From positions 33,542,001 to 33,606,000 of the forward strand of contig JANJGN010000026.1 in assembly GCA_026770705.1 (NCBI GenBank): 64,000 nt of DNA, written 5' to 3'. Positions 12,311-49,324 of the stretch are shown here, piece by piece. Under the pieces are notes generated by a model. The model was not told where the DNA came from, did no database searches, and saw only the letters and a program-made list of their open reading frames with translations. Both the position numbers and the translations under genes were made by a program. The stretch comes from Isurus oxyrinchus (lineage: Eukaryota). The stretch's first letter is position 1. Each line of letters starts with the position of its first letter.

Positions 12311-13489
12311 TAGATCGATAAATTGATAGGTAGATATTCATGTTTACTTGGATAGAGCAATGATAGAATGAATGGATAGTTGGATAAATTAATGTTCTTT
12401 CTAAGGACCAGTGATTGGATAGATGGATGGATGGATGGATGGACAGATCGACGGACTGATGGATGGACCGATCTGAAAAATGCTGTTCCACATTTTCAGC
12501 TTTACGATTGATTACCTCATAACTTGCAAGAGGCCCTTTATTCAATTTGTATCGGTCTGGCACTTTCAGCCCTTCCTGATTTCCTGGATCATTTCAATCC
12601 CTTGGCTGTCGAGAACTGGTGAGCTGAAGGTCACCAAGTGCAATCTGGAGGTATCCCTGTGGTACTCATGATCCTTCTCCAGAGATGGTGAATCTTGATC
12701 TGAAATATAAAACACGTTTTCATGACTGGGATGAGAAAGGAGGATTGTAATATTTGCAACGTGCAATTGTTTCAGGTGCAACAAACCACAAGACGGATCC
12801 TCGGCCAAATTACTTCAATCACAACAGAAACATAGCAGATCATTGGATAGTATTTCCCCCCTTTGTATGGTAATTCATTGTCACTGTGACACTGGTGAAG
12901 TCGCGCCATTCTAAACAGCACGGGGTGGGGGTGGGGTGGTGGGGTGGGGGTAGTGGGTGTGCATGAAATGTGACATTTTTCCGGCAATATATTCATTGAA
13001 AATCATTGGCACAATGGACTATATCCGATGGATATTGCACATTGTTGTCTCAAGTTCAAAAGCTTTTAACTCCTTCAGACACACTCCCCAGAAGCTTTCC
13101 TTTCAGTGCATTCATGCAGAGAATCGAATCTTCACATGTTGGATGAGTAAGGTCAGTGCTTCAATGAGATGTGCTCAGGGTCACCGTGCTGGAGATTTCT
13201 GGTTACAGTGGACATCAGCCAGACAGAACTGAGCCGTTGAAGTAGCTTAAGTGATTTGAATCACAGTTTCCAACATCAATACCTGGTCAATGCTCTTTGG
13301 AATAATACTAATCCAAACATCTCCTTTTCACACGGTTGCACTTGTGTTATGAGACTTGTTTAGGGAGGGGGAGATCTGATGTGATGATGTAAAGTCTCCA
13401 ACAAGAAGTCAATGTGGGAATATTCAATAAATACCTTTCCACACAAATTTCTGCTCTGAATTTATACCTCGAACCCACTTCCGAATGTT

Positions 13490-13975
13490 TGAAGGGTTTT
13501 TGCAGCCATTCCTGGGATGTGGGCGTCGCTGGATAGGCCAGAATTTATTGTGCACCCCTAGTTGCTCTTCGAAGGCAGTGGTGAGCTGTCTTCTTGAACT
13601 GCTGCGTTCCATGTCATGTAGTTACATCCACAGCGTTGTTAGAGATGGAGTACCAGGATTTTGACCCTGCAACATTGAAGGAGCGGCGACATATTTCCAA
13701 GTCAGGATGGTGAGTGGCTTGGAGGGGAACATCCAGCTGGTGGTGTTCCCATCTATCTGCGGTCCCTGTCCTTCTAGATGGCAGTCATCGTAGGTTTGGA
13801 AGGTGCTGTCTGAGGTGACCTGGTGAATCCCTGCAGTATATCTTGTGCACACTGCTGTTGCTGTGTATCGGTGGTGGAGGGAGTGAATGTTTGTGGATGG
13901 GTGCCAGTCAGGCGGACTGCTTTGTCCTGGATGGTAGAAAGCTTCTTGAGTGTTGTTGGAGCTGCACCAACAATT
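13490..13975 (-). mobile_element. LINE 3' fragment of a second family (related copies ~6600-6830 and ~56320-56810)
   Basis: PTTLKKL.TIQDKA.RL.GT...NIHSLHHR.T..AVCT motif shared between copies. Confidence 0.8.
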
Positions 13976-14834
13976 GCAGCAAAATGAATTATTAATATTG
14001 TCATTAATATAACTATTAACATTATATTGGTGAAACATTTTTCGGTAAACGGCGCTAAGTTACTGGGTACATGATTGATCTTTCTTTATTGTGCATTAGG
14101 ATCTCTCCCACTATTCACGACTATTAAGCTGGTCGCTGCATGCTGCCATTCATGTTCAATGCATCACTATCAGGAGTAATCCTCTGTGCTATAGCTAACT
14201 GAAACGGTGGCAGATGAATGGAGAGACAGTTACAGATACATAGGTATTCCCAGGCTGTCATATTGCAAAACAAATGATATTTATCAACATTTTCTGCCTT
14301 TGATCGTTTTTAAGAAACTTTAGATGTGTCTCATTGCAATAATGATTTGATATATCGATAGTTCCATACCTTCAACTTTCCCATACAACCAATTGTTTGC
14401 AACCGAATGATGTCTCCTACCCTATGAAAGACTCTCAGCCGATTCACCACTCCTAAGCGATTGATGTTTCACAATCTGTCAATGATCGCCTATTGTATAA
14501 CGATTCAAAGTCCAATGAGTATTCTTCTGTTTAAGGAAATGACCTAATTTGTCCAGAAATCCTCTCAATGACTGTGAAGTTCAGGCTAACCTTGGTTCTT
14601 AGAGTACAATTCACACAATAGCTGAGCTATTCTGTTGTCAGGTTCAAGGTCACACCCACCGTCAGTGCCTCTGCTCCCGGCGGGACTCTACAATAGGTTT
14701 TGGGGTACAGGAGAGGCCCGGATTCACTCTGGTTTAACAATGTATCTATATTGAAGGCTGAGCCATTGAATGTCTGGATTTCTATATATTGGTGTCCTCT
14801 TGATCTATATATTCATTCATTCACAATGAACCCT

Positions 14835-15175
14835 GGCTGTCAGCTTTGGTTCAGTTGGTAGCACTTCCCCCTTTTACATTAAATTGAGGCTGTCTGCCCT
14901 CTCAAGTCGATGTAAAAGATCCCATAGTACTATCCTGGCTGGAAGTGCAGGGGAGTTGTCCCAGGTTTCTTAGCAAATATTTAGCAACCAATAAACATGA
15001 CAAAATACTAACTGGTCATTATCGCACTGCTGCTTTTGGGAGCTTGCTGTGCGCAAATTGGCTGCCGCCCTTCCGACAAGACAACAGTGAATACATTTCA
15101 GAAGTGCGTTTTTGGCTGTAAAACACTCAGAGATGTCCGGTGATGGTGAAAAGCGCTATAATACATTTTTCCTTT
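14835..15175 (+). mobile_element. tRNA-headed SINE (related fragment ~40225-40400)
   Basis: A-box-like TGGTTCAGTTGGTAGC and core GATGTAAAAGATCCCAT...TTGCTGTGCGCAAATTGGCTGCC. Confidence 0.65.
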
Positions 15176-16464
15176 TTCTCCTTTTTTGAACTCTAGGTGT
15201 AAAATGAAAAGTGTTGGATTGAGGCAGGGAATCATAGCCTTCTAGGATGCGTTTACACACCAGGCTGGGAAGAAGGTCATTCAGCCACTCAGGACTGTAC
15301 CAGCATTAAAAGAAACTATCGAATTTATCTCATGCACTCTGACCCCCACCCCCCACCCACCCCATGCTGTTCCTCCATAGCCCTGCATTTTATTTCATTA
15401 GGGACCATGTCTCTGCTGATAATGGATTACATCCTGTCCAGTTGCCCCACTTACATTACTCTAGAGCATGACACCGTTTAAATTATGTAAAACTGTTTTT
15501 CAACTACTACTTCAAAAGGTGATACCCGAGGATCTGAAAGAGGTTAGGACGGAAATGATGAACGTAAGAGGGTAAAAAGGAATAACGTGGCAACATAAAT
15601 AGGGGGAAACTTGCTGGAGATCAGCAAGTGTTTCATTCCTTTCCAAGCAAGGGGAATAATACATCAGGATTTTAAGACGAAGTAAGTTCAGGTCAGATAT
15701 AGGTAGATTTATTTTTTGCAATCAGTTGCCCGAATTATCACACTCTTGACGTTTATATCAGGAGTTTCTGTTTAATGCTGAGCTGATCACATAACAACGA
15801 AACGCAAAGAATAATTGGAATAATTTAGCCCCAGTTCAAACTGAATATTGGGGACATGGGTGCTTTCTTCTGATGGAATGCTCAATGTCTTCTCAATCAA
15901 TGTTAATGATATTAAATGAACAGCAATTACGTTTCGCATAAAATAAAATCTTGAACATAATGTGTGAAAATAATTATTTATCTTGGTGGATATAATTTGT
16001 AAACAGCATGATTTGTTGATACACATGTACACACGCCAATACGCAGACACACACAGACACGCACACACAGACACGTAGACACATGCACATACAAACACAC
16101 ATTTCAACTTGAGACCCTACCTTGGCTCCCTCGGAGGCTCTGTAGCATCTGAAGAAACTGCAAAAATCACCAACATCATATTTCAGGTGGTACAATGATC
16201 CAATAATATCTATCCACGTCGCATATGTTGAGTTGGACATTAAAACGCCCATGGCCCCAACACTGTGCCCTGGTCCACATTGCTCGCTTCCACCAAGACC
16301 ATCAAGAATTAATTAATAGGATTGAGACACTTTGCTCTTTTCCTGACCTAAGAGTGCGTAAATCAGCCACGTTAATCAACAATAGTTGCACCTTAAATAT
16401 TGGAACTTTCCACAGGAGTTAATGAGCTGATACATCAGTAGAAGTGGTTTCTTGACACATTAAG

Positions 16465-17740
16465 CCAGCATGGACTGGTAAAGGTCAAATCATGTTTAAC
16501 TAACTTGCTTGAGTTTTTTTCTTGACACAGCAGGTGTCACACAGGTGGATGAGTCCAATGCTGTTGACATGGTTTATATGGACTTCCAAATGTAATTTGA
16601 TGAAGTGCCGCACAACAGGCTTGTGAGTAAAACTGGGGCTCACTGGAATAAAATGGACAGTAGCATCATGGATAGGGAATTATCTGAGTGCCAGGGAACA
16701 ACGAGTAGTTTTGAACGGTTGATATTCAGACTCGGGGAAGGATTACAATGAAGTACCCCAGGGATCAGTGCTAGGATGCCTGCTTTTCATGATATTTATT
16801 AATGAACTGGGCATTGGTGTACAGGACACAATTTCAAAATATACAGATGATGCGAAATGTGGAAGCATTGCGGGCGATGAGGAGGATAGTGGAGGATCTC
16901 AAAAAGACATAGAGAGGTTGGTGAAGAGGGCGGACAAGTGACAAATGAAATTTAAGGCAGAGAATATGAGAAGTGGTTCATTTTGGTGGGAAAAACGCAG
17001 AGAGACAATATAAAAGAAAGAGTACGAATCCAAAGAGGCTGCAGGAGCAGAGGCTGTTTATATGTATAAATCATTGAAGGTGGCAGGACAAGTAGAAAGA
17101 GGGGTTAATAAAGCATACATCATCCTGGATTTTATCAATAGGGGAAAAGAGGGTAAAAGCACGGAGGTTATGTTAAACTTGTGTGGCACACTGGTTAGGC
17201 GTCAACTGGAGAATTACATCCAATTGTGAGCTTTAGGAAGAATTTGAAGGCATGAGAGAGGGCACAGATTTATGGAAAATGTTCCAGGGATAAGGAGCTC
17301 CAGTTATGTATAAAGAGTGGAGAAGTTGGCTTTAATCTCCTTGGTGAAGAGAAAGTGTAGAGGAGATTTGCTATGGGGTACTAAAAACCATGAGTGGTCT
17401 GGACAGGCTAGATAGGAGGGATTGTTCCCATTGGTGAAAGGATCAAAAACCAGTGGGCACAGGTTTACAGTAACCTGGAGAAGAAGCAGTGGAGAAGCAA
17501 GGGAAAAAACCGTCTTCACACAGTGAGTGGTAAGGATCTGGAATGCATTGCTTGACAGTGTGGTGTAGTGAGGGACATTTGATGTTTTCAAATGGAAATT
17601 GTATCATTACCTGAAAAGGGGGAAAAAACGCTGGAGTACGGGAAAATCAGTGCCACTAGGACAATTGCTGCTTCAGAGTTCAGCACGGACAGGACCAGCA
17701 GAAAGGTATCCTTCTGTGCTGTAAGAATTCAACGATTCTA
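16465..17740 (+). mobile_element. CR1-type LINE RT/3' fragment
   Basis: Decayed YMDF, VPQGSVLG, (F)ADD motifs and CR1 3' end. Confidence 0.88.
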
Positions 17741-17869
17741 TCATTAATATCAGAAGCAGCAATTGAAATCCACATTTTCACAGCATCAACAGTAGCAGAG
17801 TCTGTCCAGTGGATGGCAGTGAAACAGTGAAGACTGACACGATATGAGCCACGCACACTGTCTCAGTCA

Positions 17870-20180
17870 TTTCTGTTAAACCTGACCCTCTGTCTGTATA
17901 TATTACACAAAGTCATGTCTCTGATCATTTTACAACAGGTTGTGTCTCAGTTGTTTCTGTAATAGGCCCAATCTCAGTTGTTAATGTACTGGACAAAGGC
18001 CATATTACACTAGACATTAGAGTCATAGAGGTCTACAGTACAGAAAAAGGCCCTTCGGCCCAAGAAGTCTGCACCGGTCAGACAAGTACCTAACTATTCT
18101 AATCCCATATTCCAGCACTAGGCCCAGAGACATGTATGCCACGGCATCGCAAGCGCACATCCAAATGCTTCTTAAATGTTATGAGGGTTTCTGCCTCTAC
18201 CACCCTTTCAGGCAGTGAGTTCCAGATTCCCACCACCCTCTGGGCAAAAGAAATATTCCTCGCATCTCCTCTAAGCCTCCTGCCCCTTAACTTAAATCTA
18301 TGCCCCCAGGTTATTGATTCCTCCACCAAAGGGAAAAGTTCCTTCCTGCTGACCCTATCTATGCCCCTCATAATTTTATACACCGCAGTCTTGTCCCCCC
18401 TCAATCTCCTCTGCCTCAGGGAAAATAACCCCAGTTTATCCAGCCCTTCCTCACAACTAAAACTCTCCAGCCCAGGCAACACCCTGGTAAATCTCCTCTG
18501 CACTGTCTCTTGTGCAATCACACCCTTCCTATCATTCGGATTCCAGAACTGCACGCAATATTCTAACTGTGAACTAACTAACGTTTCATACAGTTCCAGC
18601 ATAAGCTCCCTGCTCTCACATTCTATGCCTTGGCTAATAAAGGCAAGTGTCCCATGTGCCTTTTTATAAATATACATTCTCTCAGTTATTATGTTCATTA
18701 AAGCATGCCTTGGCTACTATAGTAATAGTCTATGTTTCAGTTGTTACTGCGCTAGTATTTGACTCTGCTTAATAGAAACCAGAACATTTTCTTGTTTGCA
18801 CGGCATGAGGCTCTTTCTCAGTTATTACACTACTAAACCCTGCCACGTTTATACTAAGCTAGGGGATGTCTCGGCCAATGCTGCACCAGTCCATGTCTCT
18901 GTTTAGATCATACGATGCCCTGTCACTGTTATTATTGCACAATACTGTGTGTCTCTCTATTATTGCTGCACTTGCCCATATCTCTGTTTATATTAATCCA
19001 GGCCCTCTGTTTGTAATTACTGTGACAGGCTCTTTCTCCGTTTATATTGGACAAGGTCCTGTATCAGATAAAACTGCAGTAGACCCCGTGACAGTTTCCT
19101 TTCACTAGATCCTGCCTCAGTTATTACTGAACTAGATCAAGTCACAGTTCATACTACACAAAGTCCTATTTCAATTATTAGTGCACTCGGCACTGCCCCA
19201 ATTTCTATTCCATTAGATTATGTCCCTGTTTATATGGCACTAAATCGCATCTTTGCTGATATTCTGTTCGACCCTATCTCAGTTTATATTATACTGGACG
19301 CTGTCTCAGTTTTATATTGCGTTAGATCTGGTCTCAGTTTATATTACACTGCAGCCCGTCTCTGTTAATATTACACTAGACCCTGTCTCAGTTTATATTA
19401 CATTAGACCTTGTCTCAGTGTATATTACACTATACCCTGTCTCAGTTTATGTTACACTAGACATTATCTCTGCTGATGTTAAAATAGACACTGTCTTTGT
19501 TATTTCTGTGTAGACCATGTCTCTGCTTATATTACACAAGACAAAGTCTGTTATTACTGCACTAAAGGCTGGCTCAGTAACTGCTGATACTAGGCCCAGT
19601 CTTGGTTTATATTACTGTAGGTGCTGCATCAATAATTGGTGCACACGGCCCTGTCTCAGTATTACTGCATCAGACTCTGACTTTGTTTCTATTGAAATAG
19701 ATTCTGTCTGTGATAATATTACACCAGTTCCTGCCTCAGTTATTTCAGTGCTCGGTATTGTCTCAGCTGTTTTCGAATTCGGCCGTGGCTCTGGTTGTAT
19801 TACATACAGTAAAGTCTCAGTTATTACTGCTCTGAACCCAGTGTCCGCATATGCAACGTTAAATCCTGTATTAGTTGTTGTTGCACCAGTCCATACATCT
19901 TATATTACACTCGCCTTGTCTCTGTTTTTACTTCAACTAGATCATGTCTTTTGTTTATCTTACATTGGAGGCAACCTCAGTTATAATTGCACCAGACCCT
20001 GTCTAGGGTATTATCAATCCATGTGCCAGATCAATCATTACTGTTCTAGCCCCGAGAGAGGATTGATATTAATTGATATTAACCCAGGTCCTTATTCAAT
20101 GATCACTGCACTAACCCTGCCTCAGTTATTACCACACTAGGCAATGCCTCTATTATTGCTGCAAGGGTCTATGTCTCTGT
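17870..20180 (-). repeat. Degenerate 27-bp satellite, reverse orientation (interrupted by a CR1)
   Basis: Repeats of CTAGACCCTGTCTCAGTTTATATTACA. Confidence 0.85.
18020..18665 (-). mobile_element. CR1-type LINE 3' fragment
   Basis: ORF LEYCVQFW...VQRRFTR...LFSL..RRLRGD...RVVGIWNSLP. Confidence 0.92.
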
Positions 20181-21514
20181 GAGTTGGAGACATAATGTTA
20201 CACACAAAGATGTTGAGGTGGGAATTTTTCTCTGGCATTGTCCAAAAACGGGAGGTATTTGATGGCCCGTTCCTTGCAACACCTGACAGTTAGTTTCATT
20301 TAGTTTCTGTCAAATAAATTATATATCCGATATTGTCAGTTATGTGTGTTGTGTGCAAAAAAAACATGCCTCTTGCCTATGCCGCCATTTCTCAAAGATG
20401 AATAATGATCTTCACCAGAATGTTTCAGTATTTATTTTGATTTTACTCAAACTGTAACTGCGGATGATTTAATACTGCAAATATTTATTGATAACATCTT
20501 TCGTTGTGTACTTGTGTTTAGAACGTGATGTCATATTCACCATTTCGTTATCAAGACAAACATGTCTATCAGCAAAATCATTGAATGTCTCTTATCTCTT
20601 TGTCTGAGGCAGAGCCTAACTCACTGAACGTCTTCCCTTTATCTCTCTCTCTCTCCACCCACCATCTTAACTCCGTCCCTCACACCCTCTCTCTTTCTCT
20701 CTCTCTCTCTCTCTGTCTCTGAGAGTTCCTTATTTATTATGAATCTCCTATTATATAATAACACTATTTGGAGAAAATATATTTTTAGTAATTCCCCTTC
20801 ATTTCTCCCAATGATAACCTTCAACCCATTCACGCCTTCAGTGATTACGTTCAAATCCAAAACTATGCATTTACTTTAATTGTAAATTGTTTAACAACGT
20901 AACTATTTATTGATAACCAATTTTTTGTATGTATTTGTTTATAAAATGATGTCAGACTGACTATTTCGTTCCTAAGGTGGCTTATCTAAGGTGATGATCA
21001 GCTGGAAAGCGAATGATCTCACATTGAGAATAACCTGCAGTTTATTAACAAATGAGCATCTCAACATCTCACAGAAGCTCATGATAATCTAGAATGTGTG
21101 ATGATTTGTGCAAGTGATGGCAAAAAATAAAACTTGACCAATACCTGCACATGTAATTCTCCGATGTGTTACCCCTGTTGATGGGAAGGATTGAAACTCC
21201 TGCTGCTCTGCAGAGAACTTTCACTATTTCTGTTTCCCCTTTTTTAACTTTTACCTTCACAAACTCCACCACAGCCATTCGAATTAATTTTGGACTGACT
21301 GGTTTATCTGTAGGTTGTATATTCAATGTAATCTTATCGAAAATAAACCAGGATCTAGTGGACCATAAGCAGACACCGGACCTGGTAATAGAAGCAGATA
21401 TATTGGTTGATGCAGTAATAACAGAGAGAAGATCTGGTGTTATATGGTGGGGTATGGGCAGGTGCCATAACAACAGTTACATGGTCTGGTGTAATAAAAT
21501 CAGAGAAAGAAGCA

Positions 21515-26979: not shown

Positions 26980-27021
26980 CATACAGCTGCAAACACCCAT
27001 ATACACACCCACACACCAACA

Positions 27022-27088
<67 letters not shown>

Positions 27089-31835: not shown

Positions 31836-34800
31836 TCCCTTTTGATATAAATTAAGAAAATGCCTTTTGCAGTGATTACTGATACAGGGTCTAGGGTAAT
31901 ATAAACTAAGACAGGGGCAAGTGCAGTGATTACTCATACAGGTCTAGATTGATATAAACTGAGGCAGGGCGAAGTGCAGTGTTTACTGATATAGGGTCTA
32001 GATTGATACAAACTGAGGCAGGGCATAGTGCAGTGATCGCTGATACAGGACTGAGATGAATATAACTCAGGACAAGTGATGAGGCAGTGATTCCTGAAAC
32101 AAGATGTAGAGCATATAAGCTGAGACAGTGTCCATTGCTGTGAAAACTGTTACAGGGTCTATATCAATATGAGCTGAGATAGTGTCTAGTGTAGTGATTG
32201 CTGATACAAGGTCTGGATTAAGATAAACTGAGACAAGGTCTAATACAGTGATTACTGATACAATGTCTAGATTAAAATAAACTGAGACAGGGTCAAGTGC
32301 AGTGATAACTGATAGAGGGTATAGGTTGATATAATCTGAGGCAGGCCATAGTACAGTGATTACTGATACAGGGTGTCAATCAATAAAAACTGAGACAGTG
32401 TCCATTGCAGTGATTACTGATGCAGCATCTAGACCAATTTAACCTGAGGCAAGGTATAGTGCAGTGTTTACTGGTACACGATTAGCAATAATATAAACTG
32501 AGACAACGTCTAGTGCAGTGATTACTGATACAGGGCCTATATCAATTTACACTGAGATGGAGTCTAATGCACTGATTATTGATACAGGGTCAAAATTAAT
32601 ATAATTGAGACAGGGTCTTGTGCAGTGATTACTGATACAGGATCTAGATCAATATAAACAGAGAGAGTCAAGTGCAGAAATTATTAATATAGGGTCTCAA
32701 TTGATATAAACTGACACAGAGCATTTAGCATTAATTACTGATACAGGGCCTAGATTAATATAAACTGAGAGAGAGTCTAGTGCAGTGATTACTGATACAG
32801 AGTCTTTAATAATATAAACTGAGTCAGTCTCTCCTGGAACAGGGTCTGGACTAATAAAAGCTGAGACGGGGCCCAGCGCAGTGATTACTGTTGAAGGGTC
32901 GAGGCTAATATGAACGGAGGCAGAGCCAACTGCAGTGATTACTGATAAAGAGTTTAGATTAATATAAATTGATTCAGCACCTAGTGAAGTGATTTCTGAC
33001 ACAGGCTCTAGATTAGTATGAAGTGAGACAGGCTCTTCTGCAGCGATTATCGCTACCAGCTCTAGATTGATAAAAATTGAGGCAGGGCCAAGTGCAGTGA
33101 TTACTGGTACAGGCTCTAGATTAATACAACTGATACAAGGTCTAGTGCAGTGATAACACATACAGGAGAGAGACCAATATAAACCAAGTTAAGGTGTAGT
33201 GCAGTGATTACTGATACAGTGGCTAAATCAATATAAACTGAGACAGGGCCACGTACAGTGATTACTGATGCAGTGTCTAGGTTGATATAATCTGAGGCAG
33301 TCCATACTGCAGTAATTACTGATACAGGATCTATATCAAAATAAGCTGAGTTAGGTCTAAAGCAGTTTACTGATACAGGGTCTTGATAAATATAAAAGGA
33401 TAGAGGGTCTACCTCATTGATTACTGATACAGGGCCCAGACAAATATAAAATAAGACAGGGGCTAATGCAGTGATGACTGATACATGATTGAACTTAACA
33501 TAAAATGAGACAGGGTCCATTGCAGTGATTATTGAAACCCGGTCTAAATTAATACAAAATTAAATAGGGTCTATTGCTATGGTTAATGATACAGGGTCTA
33601 GATCAATTTAAACTGAGACAGGGTCTAGTGCACTGATTACTGATACAGGGTCAAAATTAACATAAGTGAGATAGGGTCTAGTGTGGTGATTACTGATAGA
33701 TTAACATAAACTGAGGCAGGTTCTAGTGCAGTAATTAGTGATACAAGGACTAGATTAATATAAACTGAGACAGGCTCTGGTACAGAGATAAATGATACAG
33801 GGTCATGATCAACATTAACCGAGACAGGGTCTAGTGCACTGATTACTGATACAGGGTCTAGATTGATTTAAAAACAATAACTGAGGCAGGGTCTAGTGCA
33901 GTGATTACTGATACAGGATCTAGATCAATGCAAACTGATACAGTGTCTATTGCAGTGATTACTGATACATGGTCTAGGTTGATATAAATGAGGCAGGGCC
34001 TACTGCCATGATTACTGATACAAGATCTAGACTAATATAAACTGAGACAGGCTTGAGTGAAGAGATAACTAATACAGGACCTAGATCAATATTAACTGAG
34101 ATAGGGTCTCGTGGACTGAATACTCATGCAGGGTTTAAGCTAATATGAACTGAGACAGGGCATTGTACAGTGATTACTGATAGTGGGCCTGTATAAATAT
34201 AAACTAGAACAGGGTTAGTGCAGTGATTACTGATACAGGGTCTGGACTAATATAAACTGAGATGGGGCCCAAAGCAATGATTACTGATACAGGCTCTAAA
34301 TTAATATAAACTGAGGCAGGGCCTAGTGCAGTGATTACTAATACAGGGGCTAGATCAATATAAACTGAGATAGTGTCTTGTGCAGTTCTTACTTATACAG
34401 GGCCCAGATAAATATAAGCCAGGACAGGGGCTAGTGCAGTGATTACTGATACAGGGGCTAAATCAATATAAACTGAGACAGGGCCTAGATCAATGATTAT
34501 TATACAGGGTCTTGATTAATATAAAATGAAAGACGGTCTTCTGCAGTGATTACTGATACAGGGTCTAGATTGAAATAAACTAAGGCAGGCAATAGTGAAG
34601 TGGTTACTGATTCAGGGCCCAGATAAATATACACTAGGACATGGGCTAGCGTGGTAATTACTGATACAGGGCCTAGATCAATGCAAACTGATACAGTGTC
34701 TATTGCAGTGATTACTGATACAGGGTCTAGATTAATATAAACTGAGACAGGCCCTAGTGCCGTATTTAATGATACAGGATCTAGACGAATATAAACTAAG

Positions 34801-36871
34801 ACAGGCTCAAGTGAAGAGATAACTGATATAGAGCCTAGATCAATATTAACTGAGACAGGGCCTAATGCACCAATTACTGATATAAGGTCTAGATTAACAT
34901 AAACTGAGAGAGGGCCTGGTGCAGTGATTGCTAACATAGGGCCTAGATTGATATAAACTGATATAGAGCATAGAGCAGTGATTACTGATAAAGGCTCTAG
35001 ATTAATAGAAACTGAGACAGGGCCTGGTGTAGTGATTACTAAGACAGTGTGTTCATTAATATAAACTGAGACAGGCTCTATTTCAATGATTACTGATACA
35101 GGTCATGTCCAGTGCAGTGCTTACTGACACAGGGTCTAGATCAAAATAAACTGAGACAGTATCCAGTGAAATGATTCCTGATGCAGGATGTAGATGATAA
35201 AAACTGAGGCAGGGCATAGTGCAATGATTACTGATACAGGGTCTAGTTTAATATAGCCGAGACAGGGTCCAGTGCAATGATTACTGACACAAGATCTTGA
35301 TTAATATAAACTGATACAGGGCAAAGCACAGTGATTAACGATACAGGGTCTCGATTTATATAAACTGAGACAGGGCATAGTGCAGCGATTACCAATACAG
35401 GGCCTAGATTAATAGAGACTGAGACAGGGTAAAGTGCAATGATTACTGATACAGGGTCCAGATTTCTATAGACTGGGGCAGGTCATAGCGCAGTGAATAC
35501 TGATTCATACAAACTGGGACAGGATCTGGGGCAGTGATTACTGATACAGGGACTAGATAAAAATAAACTGACACTGTGTCCAGGGCGGTGATTACTGATA
35601 CACGACCTGAACTAATATAAACTAAGACAGGGCCAAGTGCAGTGATTATTGATACATGGTCTTGACTAATACAAACTGAGATGGGGCCTAGTGCAGTGAT
35701 TACTGATGTAGGGTGTAGGTTAATATGAACTGAGAACTGAGACAGAGTATATTGCAGAGCTTACTGATGCATGGTGTGGACTACTATAAACTGAGTCTGG
35801 GTCTAGTGCGGAGAAATATGATGCAGCTGATGTCAATATTAACTGAAACAGGGTCCAGTGCAATGGTTACTGATAATGCACTTTGATTAATATAAACTGA
35901 AACTGTGTCCAGTGCAGTGATTAGTGACACAGGTTCTAGGTTAATGTAAACTGAGTCAGGGCCTAGTGCAGTGATTACCGATACAGGGTCTGGATTAATA
36001 TAAACTGAGACAGGGTCTAGTGCAGTGTTTACTGATACAGGGTCTAGATTAATAGAAAATGAGACAGGGCCAAGTTCAGTGATTACTGATACAGGGTCTA
36101 GGTTAAGATAACCAGGGACAGGGCCTCAGGCAGTGATTACTGATACAGGGCCTTCAGTAATATAAACTGAGACAGGTTCTATTGCAGAGATAACTGATAC
36201 AGGGTCTAGAACAACATTAACTGAGACAGGGTCTAGTGCAGTGATTACTGATACAGTCTAGATTAAGGTAATCTGAGACAAGACCTAGAGCAGTGATTAC
36301 TTATACAGGGTCTTGATTAATGTAAAACGAAAGAGGGTCTCCTGCAGTGATTAATGATACAGGGTCTAGTTTGAAATAAACTGAGGCAGGCCATTGTGCA
36401 GTAATTACTGACACAGGATCTCGATTAATATAAACTGAGGTCGGGCCAAGCGCAGCGATTATCAATCCAGGGTCTAGATTAATAGAAACTGAGGCAAATG
36501 CAGTGACTACTGATAAAGGGTCTAGATTTATATAAACTGGGGCAGGGCATAGCACAGTGAATACTGATACAGGGATGAGATTAATACAAACTGAGACAGG
36601 ATCTGGGGTAATGATTACTGATACAGGGACCAGATCACAATAAACTGACACCATGTCAAGGGCGGTGATTACTAATAAATGGCCTGAACTAGTGTAAACT
36701 GAGACAGGGCCAAGTGCAGTGACTACTGATACAGGGTCTTGTCTAATACAAACTGAGACAGGTCCTCGTGCAGTGATTACCGATTCAGGGCCTAGATTAA
36801 TATGAACTGAGAACTGAGACAAAGTATATTGCAGAGATTACTGATGCATGATGTGGACTACTATAAACTGA

Positions 36872-37121
36872 TAAAAACAAAGAGAACTGCGGATGCTGGA
36901 AATCCAAAACAAAAACAGAATTACCTGGAAAAACTCAGCAGGTCTGGCAGCATCGGCGGAGAAGAAAAGAGTTGACGTTTCGAGTCTTCATGACCCTTCG
37001 ACAGAACTTGACAGTTCGACAGTTCTGTCGAAGGGTCATGAAGACTCGAAACGTCAACTCTTTTCTTCTCCGCCGATGCTGCCAGACCTGCTGAGTTTTT
37101 CCAGGTAATTCTGTTTTTGTT
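36872..37121. mobile_element. Short Penelope-like insertion forming a perfect foldback, with 13-bp TSD
   Basis: Arms 36908-37008 and 37021-37121 are reverse complements; TACTATAAACTGA at 36859-36871 and 37121-37133. Confidence 0.9.
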
Positions 37122-37414
37122 ACTATAAACTGAATCTGGGTCTAGTGCAGAGAAATATGATGCAGGGCCGACGTCAACATTAACTGAGACAGGGTCCAGT
37201 GCAGATGTTACTGATACAGGGCCTTGATCAATATACACTGAGACAGTGTCCAGTGCAGTGATTAGAGACTTAGGACCTAGATTAATATAAACGGAGTCAG
37301 GGCCTCATGCAGTCATTACTGATATAGGGTCTAGATTGATATAAACTGCAGGAGGGCATTGTGCAGTGATTACGGAGACAGGGCCTGGATTAATATAAAC
37401 TGAGACAGGGTCTA

Positions 37415-38025
37415 GGCACCTTACAGCCTTCCGGTCTGAATATTGAATTCAATAACTTTAGGTCGTGAGCTCCCTACCTATCCCCACCCCCTTTCTGCTT
37501 CCCCCTTTTTTTCCCCTTTTTTTCCCTATAAATTTTATAGATTTTTCTTTTCCCACCTATTTCCATTATTTTTAAATATTTTAAAATCTTTTATGCTCCC
37601 CCCCACCCCCACTAGAGCTGTACCTTGAGTGCCCTACCATCCATTCTTAATTAGCACATTCGTTTAGATAATATCACCAACTTTAACTTTAACACCTATG
37701 TGTTCTTTTGTCCCATTGTCACTGACATCTTTTGATGATCTGCTTCTATCACTGCTTGTTTGTCTACACAAGCACCTCTGTCTCTCTCTCTCTCTCCACC
37801 CCCCCCCCCCCCCACCCCCCCCCCCCCCCCCCGCCCCACACACCTTAAACCAGCTTATATTTCAACTCTTTCCTGGACTCGAAATCAAGTTCTGTCGAAG
37901 GGTCATGAAGACTCGAAACGTCAACTCTTTTCTTCTCCGCCGATGCTGCCAGACCTGCTGAGTTTTTCCAGGTAATTCTGTTTTTGTTTTGGATTTCCAG
38001 CATCCGCAGTTTTGTTTTGTCTTTA
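37415..38025 (+). mobile_element. Penelope-like 3' fragment inserted in the satellite
   Basis: Same terminal sequence as the 36.9-kb copy, preceded by a pyrimidine-rich UTR shared with the 44.8-45.3 kb copy. Confidence 0.88.
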
Positions 38026-41000
38026 TCTCTAGTGCAGTGATGACTGATACAGTCTCGAGATTGATATAAACTGAGGTAGTGCATTCTGCAGTGATTACTG
38101 ACACTGGCTTTAGATTAAGATAGATATAAATCAATATAAATGGAGACAGTCTCTACTGCAGTGATTACTGATACAGAGTCTAGATTGATATAACGGTAAC
38201 AAGGTGTAGTATAGTGATTACTGATTCAGGGCCAAGATTAATATAAGCTGAGACAGGATCTAGTGAGTTATTACTGATAAAGGGACTATATTATTTTTTA
38301 ATGAGAAAGGGTCTAGTCTCTGATTACTAATGCAGCATCTAGATTTTTATAAGCTGAGACAGGATCCAGTGCAGTGATTATTGACATAGGGCTTAGATTG
38401 ATATAAACTGAGGCAGTGCATATTGCAGTGCTTACTGATACAAGGTTGAGATTAATAGAAACTGAGAAAGGGCCAAGTGCAATGATTACTGATACAGGCT
38501 CTAGGTTAAGATAAACAGAGACAGGGCCTAAGGCAGTGATTACTGATACAGGGCCTTCACTAATATAAACTGAGACAAGTTCTATCGCAGAGATAACTGA
38601 TACAGTGTCTAGATCAACATTAACTGATATGGGGCCTAGTGCAGTGATTACTGATACCAGCCTAGATTAATATAAACTGAGACAGGGCCTAGAGCAGTGG
38701 TTAATTACACAGGGTCTTGATTAATATAAAATGAAAGAGGGTCTTCTGCAGTGATTAATGATACAGGGTCTAGGTTGAAATAAACTGAGGCAAGCCATTG
38801 TGCAGTGGTTACTGATGCAAGACCCATATAAATGTATACTAGAACATGGGCTAGTGCAGTGATTACTGACACAGGATCTAGATCAATATAAACTGACACA
38901 GTGTCCATTGCAGTGATTATTGATACAGGGTCTCAATCAATGCAAACTGATACATTGTCTATTACAGTGATTACTGATACATAGCCTTGATTAATGGAAA
39001 CTGAGACAGGTTCCAGTGCCGTATTTAGTGATAGAGGATCTAGACTAATATAAACTGAGACAGGCTCAAGTTCAGAGATAACTGATGCAGGGCCTAGATA
39101 AATATTACCGGAGACAGGACCTACTACACTGATTATTTATCCAGAGCCTGGGTTAATATTAACTGAGACAGGGCCTAGTGCAGTGATTACTAATACAGAG
39201 TCTAGATTGATAAATATTGAGACAGAGCATAGTACAATGATTACTGATACAGCATCTAGATTAATAAAAACTGAAAGAGGACCAGGTCCATTGATTACTG
39301 ATACAGGGTCTCGAGATATTAACTGAGACAAGGTCTAGTGCAGTGATTACTGACACAGGATCTAGATTAATATAATCTGATATAGGGCCAAGTGCAGCAA
39401 TTACCGAAACAGGATCTGGATTAATAGAAACTGCAGCAGGGCATTGTACAATGATTACTGATACAGAGTCTAGATTAATAGAACCTGAGACAAAGTTCAG
39501 TGCTGTGTTTACTGATATATGGTCCTGATCAATACAAACTCAGACAATGACCAGTGGAGCGATGACTGATACAGGGTCTAAATTGATATAAACTGAGGCA
39601 GTACATAGTGCAGTGATTACTGATACAGGTCTAGGTTAGTATAACCTGGACAGGCTCTACTGCAGTGATTACTGATATAGGGCCAAAATTAATATAAACT
39701 AACAGGATCTAGTGAGTTATTACTGATGAAGGGACTATATTAATTTTTAATGAGAAAGGATCTAGTGCACTCATTACTAATGCAACATCTAGATTTTTAT
39801 CAGCTGAGACAGGATCCAATGCAGTGATTACTGATATAGTGTTTAGATTAATAGAAACTAATAAAAATAGAAAAGGGCCAAGTGCATTGATTACTGATAC
39901 AGGCTCTAGGTTAAGATAAGCTGAGACAGGGTGTGGTGCAGTGATTACTGATCAATTATCTGGACTAATATAAAGTGAGACAGGGCCAAGTGCAAGAATT
40001 ATTTCATCAGTGGCGCCCATATCCCAAGAATGAATTAAAGTGATGCAAAATACTGTAGATTCTGGAAATCTAAAGCAAAACAAAACAAAAAACACACTTA
40101 GCAGGCCTGTGAGCATCAGTTCGGAGAGAAACAGATCAAATTTTCAGGTCGATGGCAGGTGCAAAATCTCCTTTGGTACCATCCTTGAGCGCAGAACTGT
40201 TCGCCCCACTATCCCAGACCAATATTCATTCTTCAATTAAAATCAAATATTATCTGGTCATTTTTCACAGCTCTATTCGTGGGATCTTGCTGTGTACAGA
40301 TCACCCAATGCGTTTCCAACATTACAGCTGTGTATAAACTACTATAAAACTACGTTGACAAGTTTTAAGGGTCGTGAGAATCATTCTATAAATGCACATT
40401 ATTTCTAAATGTTAACATTTTAAAATGATAGCTGCAATATGTTGAAAACCCAGAGATTAATATGATTGTAGGTCAGTCCTCTGGCTGCCGTTTTAACTTG
40501 TCCAATTTAAAGGGGTTAAATCTTCAATCAAATTGACATTCAATGGAATCCCAACCTGTTCAAAGATTGTGATAGTAGATCTTTTGGAATTAAATCCTTA
40601 ATTTAAATGTATTTTTATTTATTTGAAATAAATAACATGTGTTCTTATGAATGTTAAAGAAGTTTCCATTCATTTTGTACCAACTGTCAATATTCTTAAA
40701 ATAAAACCTTGTTTTGAGTTAAAACCAATCAATAAGTGTCTGTGTTTATCTGGTTTTGCTGCAATGAACACTTCATTGAAACCAGTGAGGCGTTTATGTA
40801 AATAAACACAGAAATAGAAGTCCCAGATTAGATTCTGGAGAGACAAAAACACAACAAATATTTCCCCACCAACACAGAAATAGAGCCAAACATGCAAATA
40901 CATCAACCGATTGCAGTAGCAATTTTTTTGGGCAATTTTTAAAATTAGTTATATGAGCATTATGTCACGATGATATCTATGTTCAGAATTAAGATAGACT

Positions 41001-41159
41001 CCCACTTATCATGAAATATAATGGCATGGCAAATGTGTTTGTAGAGATTTCCTGTATCCTCTCCCTCTCTGTCTCTTTCTCTTATTTGGTTCTTTGTTTT
41101 GTCTCTCCACCATGGGTCACCAGTAGCGAGGATTTGATGCCGCAATGAAATGCCGAAGG

Positions 41160-41510: not shown

Positions 41511-41519
41511 GTGTCAATA

Positions 41520-41950
41520 TTGCACTCGACCGTGACCCTGCCCGTGTTAATATTACACTAGACCCCGTCTGTGTTTGCATTACACTAGACCCTGCCTCAG
41601 TTTATATCAAACTCATATGTTTCTGTTTATATTATACTCGACATATCTCTGTTTATATTATACTCGACATGTCTCTGTTTATATTGCACTCGATGCTGTC
41701 TCTGTTTATAATACACTAGACGCTGCCTCTGTTTATATTACATTGGACCCTGCTTCTGTTTATATTACTCTAGATCCTGTTTTTGCTTCTATTAAACAAG
41801 GCCTTGTCTCTTTATATTACACTTGACATGTCTCTGTATATATTCATCTAGACCTGTCTCTGTATTGAAATATGCATTGTCTCAGTTCTGCGCTAGATCA
41901 TGTTTGCAGTAATTCTGTTAGAACCGGCCTCAGTTATTACTGCACTGCAC
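41520..41950 (-). repeat. Degenerate 27-bp satellite, reverse orientation
   Basis: Same monomer as above. Confidence 0.85.
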
Positions 41951-42094
41951 AAGTCCAATAATGTGGACATTGGTTGGGATGGAAATGGTGATGATCAGAC
42001 ATCAAGATGGTGGGAACGTTAATGATGCAAAAAAATCTTTCGAAAACAATTATCATGGGTGCCTATTTAGACGTCGTGACTTGCACTTTGTTGG

Positions 42095-43269: not shown

Positions 43270-43700
43270 CTCCTTGGTGTGCACATCCACGGAGCCTGAA
43301 AGCAGCAGGACAAGTAGATGACATGGTTAAGAAGGCATATTGGACACATAAAATGCAGGAGCAAGGAGGTTATGCTGGAACTGTATAAAACGTTGGTTAG
43401 GCCAGAACTGGAGCACTGCATGCAGTTCTGGTCACCACATTATAAGAAGGATGTGAATACAGTGAAGAGAGTGCAAAGGAGATATACCAGAATGCTGCCG
43501 GGCTGGAGGGCCTGAGCCATGATGAAAGATTGGATAGGCTGGGGCTGTTTTCCTTGGAGCAACGAAGGCTGAGAGGGGACGTGATAGAGGCGTAAAAGAT
43601 TATGAGGGGCATAGATAGAGTGGATAGGAAGGCACTTTTTGACCGGCGCGGAAACGGTGGGCCGAATGGCCTCCTTCTGTGTTGTAAACGTCCATGAGTC
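43270..43700 (+). mobile_element. CR1-type LINE 3' fragment
   Basis: LYKTLVRPELEHCMQFWSP...RVQRRYTRM. Confidence 0.88.
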
Positions 43701-44185
43701 CAACATTCAGCCCGGGGACAATGAGGAATGTAGAACAGCAGGTCAAAAACAACGCCTTCCATACCTGTGACCTCCACCTCCCAGAATAACAAGGGCTACA
43801 AGCACATGGGAACACAATGCCCTGCATCCTCCGACACATACAATTCTATAGGGGAGAAATTGGCCTTGGACGCTTGCAAAGAAGAAGCGATATCTGAAAT
43901 CTAATTCTGCTGACTGCGCTGAAGGTGAATATCAAGTGCTGCGTAGCACGTACGGCCGTTACTATACCGCCTGTTTCAGGCTACTGTCAGATGCCGATGT
44001 CCAGGCCAAGATCTTTATTTTTAATATTATCTCTGCTTCTCATAGACACATGGGGTAATGCAGCTATAATTTAAATGCAGGCATAGATTAAAGCAAAGCA
44101 CAGCTGATGCTGGAAATCTCAATTAAAAACAAAAAATGCTGGAAATACGCAGCAGGTCTGACAGCATCTGTGGGGAGAAAAACCG

Positions 44186-44222
44186 AGCTAATGTTTCGAG
44201 TCCGTATGACTCTTCTTCAGAG
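44186..44222 (-). ncRNA. Minimal type-I hammerhead ribozyme motif in a Penelope-like fragment (44090-44222)
   Basis: CTGAAGA-A-GAGTC-ATACG-GACTC-GAAAC: canonical CUGANGA and GAAA boxes with a 5-bp stem II. Confidence 0.7.
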
Positions 44223-44699
44223 GCATAGTCTAGTGCTATAGTTACAATGACCAGGTCTGGTATAAAATAGACATAGTCAAAATCGAATATAATATAAACA
44301 GAGACAGGGTCTATTTTAATATAAACAGTGACAGGGCCTAATGTAACATAAATGGAGACAGGGTCCAGTGCAATGCAAACTGAGATGGCTTCCATTGGAA
44401 CATTAAGGAGATAGGGTCTATTTTAATACAAACAGAGGCCTGATCCAGCATAATAGAAATAAAGCAGTTCCCAGGATATTAATAATCGAACCAGGATCCT
44501 GTATAACATGGGAGGGACGATCGTGCAGTGGGAACGTCACTTGGTTAGTAAGCAGAGATCCAGGCCTTTTCCCTGGGAATAGAGATTTGAATCCCATTAT
44601 GGCAGCATGAAGAATCGAAATTCAATTAATAAATCTGGAATTGAAAGCTCATCTCAATAATGGTGACCATGAAACTATAATCGATTATCATAAGCATCC

Positions 44700-45335
44700 G
44701 GTCTGTCAGCATCGGCGGAGAAGAAAAGAGTTGACGTTTCGAGTCCTCATGACCCTTCAGCAGAACTGGGTAAATCCAAGGGGAAAGATGCAAAACTTTA
44801 GATCTTGATCTCCCTCCTCCATTCCCACCCTCTTTCTGTTTCTTCCCCCTTCCTTTTGTTTTTTCCAATAATTTATATAGATTTTTCTTTTCCCACCTAT
44901 TTCCATTATTTTTCCATCTTTTATGCCCCCCACTCCCACTAGAGCTGTACCTTGAGTGCCCTACCATCCATTCTTAATTAGCACATTCGTTTAGATAATA
45001 TCACCAACTTTAACACCTATGTGTTCTTTTGTTCTTTTGTCTGTGACATCTTTTGATTATCTGCTCCTTTCACTGCTTGCTTGTCCCTACAACCGCACCA
45101 CCTCCCTCCACTTCTCTCCCCCCACTCCCACCCGCCCCCCACCCCTCCCCACCCCACCTTAAACCAGCTTATATTTCACCCCTCTCCTTGGATTCACCCA
45201 GTTCTGCTGAACGGTCATGAGGACTCGAAACATCAACTCTTTTCATCTCCGCCAATGCTGCCAGACCTGCTGAGTTTTTCCAGATAATTCTGTTTTTGTT
45301 TTGGATTTCCATCATCCACAGTGTTTTGTTTTTAT
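44700..45335 (+). mobile_element. Penelope-like element with inverted 5' terminal copy, inserted in a tRNA-derived SINE (44520-45410)
   Basis: 44700-44780 is an inverted copy of ~45180-45265; flanked by TTATCATAA(G/A)CATCC at ~44685 and ~45332. Confidence 0.82.
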
Positions 45336-46559
45336 CATAAACATCCATCTGGTTCACCGATGCCCTTTAGAGAAGGAAATCTGCTGTCCTTACCAAGTCT
45401 GGCCTACATTTATTTTCTTCATTCATGGAAATGTGAGTGGCACTGGCTTGGCCAGCATTTATTGCCCATCCCTAATTGCCCTTGAGAACAGTGTGGCTTA
45501 TTAGGCTATTTATTGCTGTGGGTCTGCAGTCACATGCAGTCCAGACCAGGTGGCATTAGTGTGAACCACATGGTTTTTACGACAATGGTTTCATGGTCAT
45601 TAGATTTTTGAATTCAAATTTCATCATCTGCCGTGGGGGGATTCAAACACAGATCCCAAGCGAATTACGAGCCAGGTGAGAATACCATTACACCACCTCC
45701 TCTCATACATATAGCTCCAGACCCACAATTTTGTGCAGCCCCATTCTCTGGCTATTTGATTAATTGCCCACCACCATTAATGACTGGATGTGACAGGACT
45801 TCAGAGGTAAAATCCAATCCGTTTGATGTGGGATCTTCCAGACTATGTGACTATGTGATATAAATATTGGTATTGACTGGTGCAGTATTAATTAAAACAG
45901 GGTACAGTGACATATAAACAGAAACAGTGTTTGGTCTAACATAATAATAGATGAAGTCCAACTTAAAAAGTCAGAGACAGGGACAAGTGCAGCGTTAATT
46001 TAGACAATGCGTGCTTCGTAGAATGGATCCTTCAAGACTTCAAATCCATCTGCTGGCCAAACTTCGCAATTGCAGCTCCTGTGAAAATGTCGCTGTTCGG
46101 TTCGATCTTTGACATTATTGTGTCAAGAGTCCACTTCCTCAGATGTGATAACACATCACCTTCTGCGGGAGGTGTCAAAATTTAACACAATTCAACTAAT
46201 TGCAGATGAACGTGGTTGATTAGCGCACGTTAAAGTCAGCACCAGAGTAAAGCGGCCCAATTCCTGGTAATGTAACTTTGTTCATCTTGATTATAGGGAG
46301 GGATGTTGACCAGGGAGCTCTATTGAGATCATGGGAACTTTAATGTCCACCTCAACAAACATAGTGTTGGGGAGAGTTATTGGTTCATGATACCACCTGA
46401 TAGGGTAATTTTCTTCAATAGCTACGTGCTCCGGAGCCTCCCAGGAAGTCAAGGTGCTATCTTAATTTGAAGCAGAAGATGCCATTTTGGTTTGCGTGTG
46501 AGGGAGAGAGGCGGAGACGCACATCAAATTGTTTGCAACTGAATTTCACGAAGATCGTG

Positions 46560-48000
46560 GACAACCTTCCATCGATGAAAGGTCACAGACACACAATGGA
46601 AACAAACCCATTTCAGATGTGCTGATGGCTGAGGAGGCCAATTGTGAGGCAGGTTCTGCTGGAAGTGCTGCACATGAAGCTACAAATGTCGTTGTGGGGT
46701 TTTTTTTCCGGTGATGACCTCGATTGCCAAGCTGCTGTAGCCGCTGGTCATTGTGCTGGTTCACGCCAACTCACAGGAGGTGTCGCCATTTTCCTCATTC
46801 ATCAGTTTGTTACACTCAGTTGTGATAATCGATATTTAGGGCCTTCACTTCAAGCATCCTTGAAGTGGAGCTTTGGGTGTCCCACTGGTTGTCTGCCTCC
46901 GGCTACCTCACCATACGGAAAGTCCTTGTGCATGTGACCATCTTCCATCCTATGTACGTTGCCAAGCCACCAGCACCATCTCTGTTGCATGAGCTCTACC
47001 ATCTTAGGAGCTCCGCCTTTGAGAGTACTACTGCATTTGTGATTTTATCCTGCCAGTACATAACCATAATGCGCATCAGGCAGTGAATATGGAAATTGTA
47101 GAGCTTCTTTTCTTGATAACTGTGAGTGGTCCATGTTTCACAGCCATAAAGCAAGGTGCTGAGAGCACAGGCCTTATAAACCATCAGCTTGGCCCTAAGG
47201 GTCAGTTTGATGTTATTCCAGGGGCATTTCAGAGTCAGCCATGAATAGCAGCTGCTTTCCCCATGCGGGTATCAAGTTCTGCAGCAAGAAACAGGCTTCC
47301 TGTCACCGTGGAACCCAGTGAGCAGAATTTACTTCCATCTGAGTGGTAATTAGTGTGATCAATGGCGTAAATGCAAAACCTTGTCCCATGACCAGGGTTT
47401 CCTTCATGCTTACAGTCAGGGAGAACAAGTTACAGACATGGGAGAGTCAGTTCATCAGACTTTGTGGATGAGTTTCCTTTTTGATGACCAAGTTATCAGC
47501 TTCGAGCAATTCTTTGATCAGGATTCAATGTGTTTTTGTCTTCGCTTTCAGTCTTCTAGATTGTGGGGCTTGCAGTCTGACTGGGTGTGTGAGTAGACTC
47601 CTTGTATATCTACAAGGAAGGCAAAGATCAGCAGCGTGGAGAAGAAGATGCTAAACAGAATGGGGGCTAGGACACAGGCCTGTTTCATTCCATTCTTCAC
47701 TCCGAATCTGTCAGAAGTGGAATCCTTAATCTGCACAGTGCAATGCATGTTGTCATGGAAGGAGTGAATGAGACTGAGGAGCTTTGGATGGCAGCCAATT
47801 TTCCACAAAATCTTGTAGGGTCCTGTTCTGCTGGTGGTGTCGAGCGTATGGAGCAGATCATTTCCAGGGTATACCTTCCGACACAAACACTACACTGTGC
47901 TTCGGCCTACACGTAGATGAAGTCTTTAAAGTCTGATCCAAGCAAAGGCCTTCCCCGTGACTCAATGAGTGAGATATTCCTGTAGTTGTTGCAGTCTCAC
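46560..48000 (-). mobile_element. RTE-clade LINE fragment
   Basis: VYKACALSTLLYGCETWT...WQDKITN..VLSKA; GVKNGMKQACVLAPILFSIFFS. Confidence 0.85.
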
Positions 48001-48120
48001 CTGTTGGTTTTGTTTTCAGATAGTGCAATGATTATGATGTTCTTCACCTCCTTCAGAACGGATCTTAACTTTCAGCAGAGGAGGAGAAGGTCGTAAAGGC
48101 TGAGAAACATACATAATTAT

Positions 48121-48452
48121 ATATACCAATTATTATCAATTCACGAAGGTAAATAATTATATTGACGAATTACCATCAATTCACAAAGATAAATAATTAT
48201 ATTCACCAACTGGCATCAATTCACAAAGATAAATAATTATATTCACCAATTATTATCCATGCACAAAAATAAATAATTATATTCAACAACTATCATCAAT
48301 TCACAAAGATAAATAGTTACATTCACCAATTATCATCAACTCACAAAGATAAATAGTTACATTCACCAATTATCATCAACTCACAAAGATAAATAATTAT
48401 ATTCATCAATTATCATCCATTCACAAAAATAAATAATTGCATTAACCAATTA
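48121..48452 (+). repeat. 40-bp AT-rich minisatellite, about 8 copies
   Basis: Unit ATTCACCAATTATCATCAATTCACAAAGATAAATAATTAT in register at 48201, 48241, 48281, 48321, 48361, 48401. Confidence 0.93.
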
Positions 48453-49324
48453 TTTTCAGTATTTTATTTCATATAAAATGTAATTGCAGTTCATGTAATA
48501 TCATTGACATTGATTGAGATCACATTGACCATTCTGTCAGCATGGAATCACATCTCTCCCAGAATTCAGTGAGAAATGAAATTAAATCAGACTGAGGATA
48601 ATGAGCAGCTACTCAGCAGCCTCTGCGCTTTATTGACAAGTAATCACCTCATCATCACACAGAAACTCCTGATATATAACTGGAGTGTGTGAGCATTTGG
48701 AAAGTGATGGTATGAAAAAGGCTACCTGGTCCTGACGTTAGTTGATAAATATTTAAATCCAGATTTGTCATTTCCCTCGTCTGGAAGGTAAGGAAACATT
48801 TGCGGCACTCCATTGCGTTTCACACTATTTCTCTTTCCACAGTAATAGTGTTTAGTTTGTTACATTCATTAATTTGGGTGAGGATATGTTGAATGTTTTG
48901 TTGTACATGAAAGGACCACATGTTGCAAATATTACAATCCTCCACTCTAATCCATATCATGTACCCACTTTCTGTGTTAAAGATGATGATTGCCCAACAG
49001 CAGGGAAGAATCACCAGTGCCACAGGGACGTCTCCAGCCTTTTGTTGGTGACGTTCAGCTCGTTAGTTCCCGATAGGCAGGGGATGGAATTCATCCAGAA
49101 AATCTGAAAGGACTGAAGATATTAGACTGACACAAATTAAATACAAGACCAGCTTCAAGATATGAAGTGGTCAAGCACAAAGATGAGAAAGTAGGACAAC
49201 ATCTTTCAGGTGCATCTATGGATACATCGATCAATTCACTCACTGATTCCTTCATGAAAATATTCAGGCATCCAACCACCATTCATTCCTGCACACTGCA
49301 GTCATCCCTCTATTTTTGGTAGAC

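Follow-up and report, generated by a model that had tools for sequence, protein, structure and literature searches.

Introduction

[quoted passage not shown] The NAR-TCR cassette, in the available part of its own description, consists of leader, V, D and J and, after them, a supporting V-delta that has no leader and carries matching extra cysteines (PMC1845163). In this study, we analysed a 64-kb stretch of the Isurus oxyrinchus genome (G000:C26:33542001-33606000, hereafter the window), which, from its gene content, is a cartilaginous-fish antigen-receptor region. It carries two distant, mirror-image arms of DNA upstream of an IgM-type minicluster. We believe, with a probability of roughly 0.7, that these arms, which lie in an upstream region common to two IgM families, likely remain from an old inverted duplication, within the locus, of an approximately 1.6-kb module without detectable coding trace, and that they are neutral.

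Two mirror-image arms in the window

Comparison of the window with itself by blastn found three inverted pairs of blocks, named E (12473-12812 / 49209-48870), D (15558-15991 / 48869-48419) and C (16103-16463 / 46471-46115), with identities of 70%, 68% and 68% and E values of 1e-38, 3e-33 and 5e-23, respectively. Two further pairs, A (20137-20403 / 44086-43843, 58%) and B (17719-17896 / 46142-45972, 61%), were missed by blastn; their Smith-Waterman scores were 300 and 232, and those of 200 shuffles were 96±19 (maximum 167) and 71±11 (maximum 110), respectively. The five collinear reverse-complement blocks that a preliminary description had proposed from the letters are real, with identities of 58-70% far beyond chance: the significance analysis gave blastn E values of 5e-23 to 1e-38 for C, D and E, and the scores of A and B exceeded all shuffles. 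The order A to E is collinear between the arms, and in the right arm B abuts C and D abuts E. On this layout, the arms are two mirror-image copies of one module of about 1.6 kb, A-satellite-B-C-D-E, its length excluding the inserts and the A-B satellite. The arms and the features between them are as follows.

12473..12812, minus strand, left arm block E
15553..15990, minus strand, left arm block D
16091..16463, minus strand, left arm block C
16464..17718, plus strand, CR1-type long interspersed nuclear element (LINE) fragment at the left B/C junction
17719..17896, minus strand, left arm block B
17855..20130, minus strand, 27-bp satellite remnants between left B and A, including a CR1 piece at 18018-18666
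20137..20403, minus strand, left arm block A
20437..21257, plus strand, third and older copy of block D (D3), overlooked in the preliminary description and also present in the second IgM family
31860..40005, plus strand, main 27/54-bp satellite array between the arms, at the same position in clusters of the second family
40597..41081, plus strand, unique tile common to the upstream regions of the second family (71-76%)
43843..44086, plus strand, right arm block A
45972..46500, plus strand, right arm blocks B and C, abutting
46550..48070, minus strand, RTE-type LINE fragment between right C and D
48105..48453, no strand, array of 40-bp tandem units where right block D begins
48419..49237, plus strand, abutting blocks D and E of the right arm, with about 2.4 kb from their end to the IgM leader

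The two arms have gained different inserts, as first described. The CR1-type fragment was present in 20/20 left-arm loci of the window's own IgM family (family 1) and was continuous with block B in the family-2 loci C20 and C38, while the RTE-type fragment was present, whole or in part, in 20/20 family-1 right-arm loci. We take these fragments to be CR1 and RTE from reverse-transcriptase motifs rather than from a repeat library. The satellite had been described as mirrored too. This holds for the satellite between A and B, which is on the minus strand in the left arm and on the plus strand in the right arm; it fails for mirroring about a single axis, for there is an extra minus patch at 41534-41863 and there are plus patches at 7.2, 23.2 and 29-30.5 kb. 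A 22-mer of the satellite had 371 exact matches in the genome, and among the matches listed (100 of 371) all were on C26 at 23-33 Mb. IgM clusters of both families have the 27/54-bp satellite in their upstream DNA, and on C49 it extends over more than 30 kb (C49:483400-515114). Additional short, old inverted duplicates lie between the arms (20440-20881 and 26345-26909; 25035-25176 and 26544-26703).

The arms predate the amplification of the family-1 unit

Three further units were collinear with the window at about 67-88%, and the order of the blocks was kept in 20 left-arm and 20 right-arm loci picked through matches to E or VH. We counted 64 family-1 VH (identity at least 74%, plus one frameshifted copy) against 102 of 105 E matches, leaving out two second pieces of one copy and a match on C12. 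A same-strand E was found 1.5-5 kb upstream of 61/64 VH, and an opposite-strand E at 31.9-49.3 kb from 33/64 (19/39 on C26 alone). The 39 VH on C26 occupy both strands. The identity between left and right arms was 62-71% and that among left arms or among right arms was 83-90%. This indicates that the mirrored pair predates the amplification. The left-right distance was 0.330 within one unit and 0.329 between units; neither homogenisation nor ongoing conversion between the arms of one unit was seen.

On its far side, the left arm faces TCR genes. At 36/41 left-E copies, the end of the arm faces a NAR-TCR V 4-11 kb beyond E (134 of 151 V matches used; partial second pieces and one unlisted match were left out). 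Among the family-1 clusters without a left E, the three that were checked all keep a shorter, truncated inverted arm joined to other TCR Vs.

On C26:23-40.3 Mb and on C140, C151, C152, C210, C242 and C301, IgM clusters, NAR-TCR cassettes, TCR V and IgW-like V are interleaved and co-amplified. C242:370-549 kb holds more than 20 NAR-TCR V matches in tandem, almost all of them in one orientation, and beyond these, at 584.7 kb, comes a divergent VH-like gene. Arm blocks 98-100% identical to those of the window recur at C26:36.39 Mb, 39.25 Mb and 33.17 Mb and at C210:0.75 Mb; they are very recent duplicates or haplotype copies.

A second IgM family carries the same upstream region

A second IgM-type family was found on C20, C38, C42, C49, C100, C26:5.9 Mb and others, with about 70% amino acid identity to family 1 in C-mu and about 52% in VH. 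Its V looks IgW-like, at about 52% to either family-1 or IgW-like V, and an old exchange of V is possible. Of seven family-2 clusters checked, six had a proximal B-C-D about 4.2 kb before VH, four had distal inverted B and A and one more had B without A; upstream TCR V was found in none of the seven. At least 40 family-2 proximal flanks were found in all. The module is thus present upstream of IgM clusters of both families, an examination of other IgH clusters that the preliminary description had proposed. The upstream elements follow each other as in family 1: first inverted B and A, then D3, a number of unique tiles, the satellite array and the tile at 40.6 kb, and last B-C-D. Family 2 has the CR1-B junction of the left arm unbroken, at 67-69%, and the right arm lacks this junction.

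Because family 2 shares the inverted arm and the CR1-B junction without a TCR V, the left arm is, on this comparison, the far end of an ancestral IgM upstream region of about 35-40 kb and not a TCR V flank. Its contact with TCR V is, by the same reading, a family-1-specific junction, joined to TCR V or NAR-TCR arrays at differing breakpoints; in the window, a microsatellite terminates the arm, and a decayed TCR V lies a few hundred bases away. The data do not support the ideas that the duplication links TCR V flanks with IgM flanks and that the head-to-head layout of TCR V and IgM was born from it: family-2 clusters carry the inverted left arm without a TCR V, and in family 1 the breakpoint of this arm varies, as do the TCR Vs that adjoin it.

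Tiles of family 1 and family 2 were 64-84% identical and left and right arms were 66-75% identical (one aligner), which places the split of the families and the duplication of the arms at a similar age. One tile between the arms (25903-26421) reached 81-84% between families, the other tiles being at 65-76%; this tile might be an element under constraint, have been transferred later or belong to a repeat that went unrecognised.

Further copies of the blocks were found: two additional lineages of C among TCR Vs, the third copy and more family-2 lineages of D, and a second family-2 copy of B. In the best trees, left and right arms were sisters for C and D, with support of 85/84 and 97/93, respectively. 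In the tree of block A, the left arm grouped with its family-2 counterpart (100/100).

Another reading is that an ancestral IgM cluster was duplicated head-to-head and that the left arm is the flank of a sister whose V-D-J-C was later deleted, a reading that we consider unlikely. It agrees with the left arm mirroring the right arm all the way to E and its microsatellite, and with the sister relation in the C and D trees. However, profiles built from the D-J region and from the 1.9 kb that separates E from the leader found, in the units examined, no inverted remnant of a sister cluster beyond the left arm. In family 2, the DNA beyond the left arms was the previous cluster, satellite or an incomplete repetition of the same flank, or held nothing recognised. 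The preliminary description had supposed a sister cluster either lost or hidden in the assembly gap. A cluster hidden in the gap was ruled out: the single N run in the window has 209 nt, and the spacing over its position is 413 nt with the N run included, compared with 407-437 nt in five near-identical paralogues. A sister cluster may have been lost very early, but no remnant of one was found in the units examined.

A functional account of the amplified unit was also considered. The unit may be a composite back-to-back module, formed by the IgM cluster, 40 kb of mirrored upstream DNA and the NAR-TCR/TCR V array, of which dozens of copies over 17 Mb would be kept for shared regulation of IgM V and TCR V and for the reach of trans-rearrangement. 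We regard this as improbable.

The module appears confined to antigen-receptor loci

The preliminary description would have been wrong if the blocks were copies of a high-copy dispersed element unrelated to Ig/TCR loci, and this proved not to be so: the arms are a low-copy, locus-confined, old inverted duplicate. A DNA search with left E placed all 40 scored matches (84 candidates) on C26 at 23-40 Mb or on unplaced contigs, and one with right D-E did the same for all 58 matches (the best 40 of 178 candidates scored). In a six-frame search with a frame of E (121/121 candidates scored), 104/105 matches were on C26 at 23-40 Mb or on nine unplaced contigs, and the remaining one had an E value of 0.36. 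Most of the unplaced contigs bearing module matches also bear family-1 VH matches. In public contigs of two organisms, the depth of the blocks, a rough measure, was 10^1-10^3, as in unique flanks, and that of repeat inserts was up to 10^5-10^6. A high-copy dispersed transposable element is ruled out by the 104/105 matches in the locus and by this contrast in depth.

The module was not found within 10 kb upstream of two IgW-like V genes and of four other V loci. Weak pieces of block A (14-24 bits) lie downstream of two IgNAR-like V genes (L124:6710-6801 and L126:9398-9580). We searched the published literature and found nothing on this flank.

The module could still be what is left of an old element, either a non-autonomous transposon or one carrying a satellite, that entered this region several times, with left and right arms as separate insertions. 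The lineages, at least four for C, five for D and four for B, occur in both orientations and several lie beside the 27-bp satellite, and 1.6 kb is a typical size for such an element. Against this, the genome searches, in which the best candidates were scored, found no copy outside IgM, TCR V or IgNAR-like neighbourhoods, the contig depth is low, no match was obtained to Pfam, to local LINE open reading frames (ORFs) or to a protein collection, and no terminal repeats were seen in the module. We judge separate insertions to be quite unlikely.

The module decays without clear signs of coding or constraint

Differences between left and right arms were flat over the codon positions (20/27/28 for E and 20/20/26 for D), and the synonymous fraction was 0.17-0.29 in all six frames. 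Among 38 stop-free pieces, Pfam gave nothing above the cut-off (best E 0.021); a collection of longer proteins gave none at E<=1 with one 90-aa frame as query; local LINE ORFs gave a best E of 0.065, and local V and C proteins gave nothing. A coding origin was rejected for lack of codon bias and of protein homology, and the parallel ORF translations noted at first are a by-product of about 70% DNA identity without indels.

Copies of family 1 diverge at the rate of the adjoining transposon inserts. The divergence of left blocks was 0.09-0.14 and that of the CR1 insert 0.115; the values for right blocks and the RTE insert were 0.10-0.16 and 0.14, respectively. Across lineages, rates were near uniform (gamma alpha 4.7-11), and C and D had no conserved run beyond those of shuffles. 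Within this one genome, the module was neither slower than neutral nor marked by a conserved motif, as would be expected of a cis-regulatory element. Because the blocks diverge at the rate of these inserts and have no conserved motif, the module is likely a neutral relic, probably without function. In two small sets of contigs presumed to be RNA, from one sample, right D/E was not covered in either set and the left blocks were not covered in one, which is evidence neither for nor against expression.

A cis-regulatory element of IgM, either an enhancer or a matrix-attachment region, whose mirrored copy could act on the adjoining NAR-TCR cassettes, is in our opinion very improbable: the position, which both IgM families keep at about 4 kb upstream of VH, the 36/41 left-E copies pointing to a NAR-TCR V 4-11 kb away and, where right B meets C, words resembling ETS and E-box motifs in the sequence would favour it, but the blocks diverge as the transposon inserts do, these words are not kept across lineages and the arm is frequently truncated or interrupted. 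Descent from a GPR139-like G protein-coupled receptor (GPCR) pseudogene was rejected, as the profile gave a best E of 0.25 over 296 block sequences yet detects GPCR genes or pieces in 12 loci; the likeness of block C to a LINE endonuclease motif was unsupported by comparison with local LINE ORFs.

Proposed history of the arms

We propose that the satellite-B-C-D module first multiplied several times in the neighbourhood of IgM and TCR V genes, which would have given lineages D3, C3, C4, F2p (family-2-proximal), F2u and F2i (about 50-62%), and that a single inverted duplication then produced the left and right arms (62-71%). CR1 would have entered the left arm before the split of IgM families 1 and 2, after which both would have retained that arm. 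In family 1, the right arm would then have received RTE, and the left arm would have been joined at its outer end to TCR V or NAR-TCR arrays. Finally, a unit of 40-45 kb would have been amplified more than 60-fold by segmental duplication, probably through unequal crossover, with its halves shuffled as well. Copy positions, shared inserts and divergences were observed; from these we infer the order of the inverted duplication and the family split, the donor arm and the crossover mechanism.

Several points weigh against this history. The right arm occupies the position of the family-2 proximal B-C-D, yet the best trees pair it with the left arm; the pairing of right arm and F2p was not rejected by approximately unbiased (AU) tests (p 0.08, 0.18 and 0.09), so that either arm may have been the donor and the order of events may differ. 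Old conversion between the arms, or a chimeric family-2 flank, would fit the trees too. In family 2, neither block E nor a proximal A was found. The distance matrices of left and right arms agreed in part (Mantel r 0.42, p 0.06, 8 units), which suggests shuffling of left and right halves. Some unplaced contigs may be haplotype copies of C26, where left E accompanies those 19 of 39 VH. As the genome search skips common words and gives scores to the best candidates only, very old dispersed relatives may have escaped it. B-C-D can be aligned between families while the 1.2 kb adjoining the leader cannot, and one window of block B had a p of 0.043, so that weak constraint may act on the module.

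Neighbouring genes

The genes of the window and the microsatellite at the outer end of the left arm are as follows.

927..1240, minus strand, leaderless supporting TCR-delta V of the NAR-TCR cassette, with a cysteine in complementarity-determining region 1 (CDR1), a splice acceptor and a 23-bp-spacer recombination signal sequence (23-RSS), features matching the available text of PMC1845163
4180..5490, minus strand, NAR-TCR leader-V-D-J (V 5014-5290, D about 4600-4626, J about 4180-4230), whose best PDB matches are VNAR domains (E 5e-20)
11930..12100, minus strand, decayed TCR alpha/delta-type V, with a leader remnant and 3' part; paralogues keep a longer broken V exon
12311..12472, no strand, (ATCC/GGAT)n microsatellite at the junction between the left arm and the TCR V pseudogene
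51604..53361, plus strand, IgM-type leader, VH (51790-52095), D1, D2 and JH, with C-mu-type exons directly past the window end

The NAR-TCR cassette has a NAR-like V with leader, an extra cysteine and no tryptophan of the WYRK motif, its own D and J, and a leaderless V-delta with a cysteine in CDR1. The 23-RSS region of the supporting V-delta (727-938) is a tandem repeat with a 60-bp period and 3.5 copies, giving several heptamer-like sites. The IgM minicluster consists of leader-VH-D-D-JH with RSS, followed by C-mu-type exons; the isotype is presumably IgM, a name given from the layout and from motifs. Its leader-V splice (51661-51790, GT..AG) was present in two contig sets presumed to be RNA, from one sample of a related organism.

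GPCR genes, putatively GPR139-like, lie among the TCR V and IgM units at L071, L083, L086, L092, L099, L101 and L165, and several have open frames of more than 300 aa.

Comparison with known systems

The module is probably junk, yet it is a marker of descent for IgM clusters. It shows that the duplicated unit of the shark IgM minicluster includes 35-45 kb of upstream DNA older than the split of the two IgM families, and that one of these families expanded within the TCR V array along with NAR-TCR cassettes. With the shared CR1 and RTE inserts and the variable left breakpoints, duplications of IgM clusters and fusions of Ig with TCR can be put in order in the genomes of sharks and rays.

Ancient segmental duplications and low-copy repeats are known in the flanks of multigene families. 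The module resembles them in being confined to its locus, collinear, neutrally decaying, broken by lineage-specific LINE inserts and re-amplified together with genes. It differs in being unusually old (about 30% diverged) and still alignable, and in forming a mirrored pair in every unit.

The NAR-TCR cassettes have the layout given in the available part of PMC1845163; here, however, they occur as many amplified copies, each time back-to-back with IgM units. The duplication lies beside the cassette and does not include it. For the nurse shark, the available text of PMC2435157 describes about 15 IgM miniloci, compared with 64 family-1 VH (39 on C26) and at least 40 family-2 proximal flanks here; a further difference from that account is the long upstream region common to the clusters. 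The complex of PMC12227049 is alike in its IgM miniclusters, in the TCR-type V between them and in the NAR-TCR V nearby. Its available text is at the level of gene models and holds nothing on upstream non-coding DNA, whereas here an upstream unit of 40-45 kb with its inverted duplicate was traced over two IgM families.

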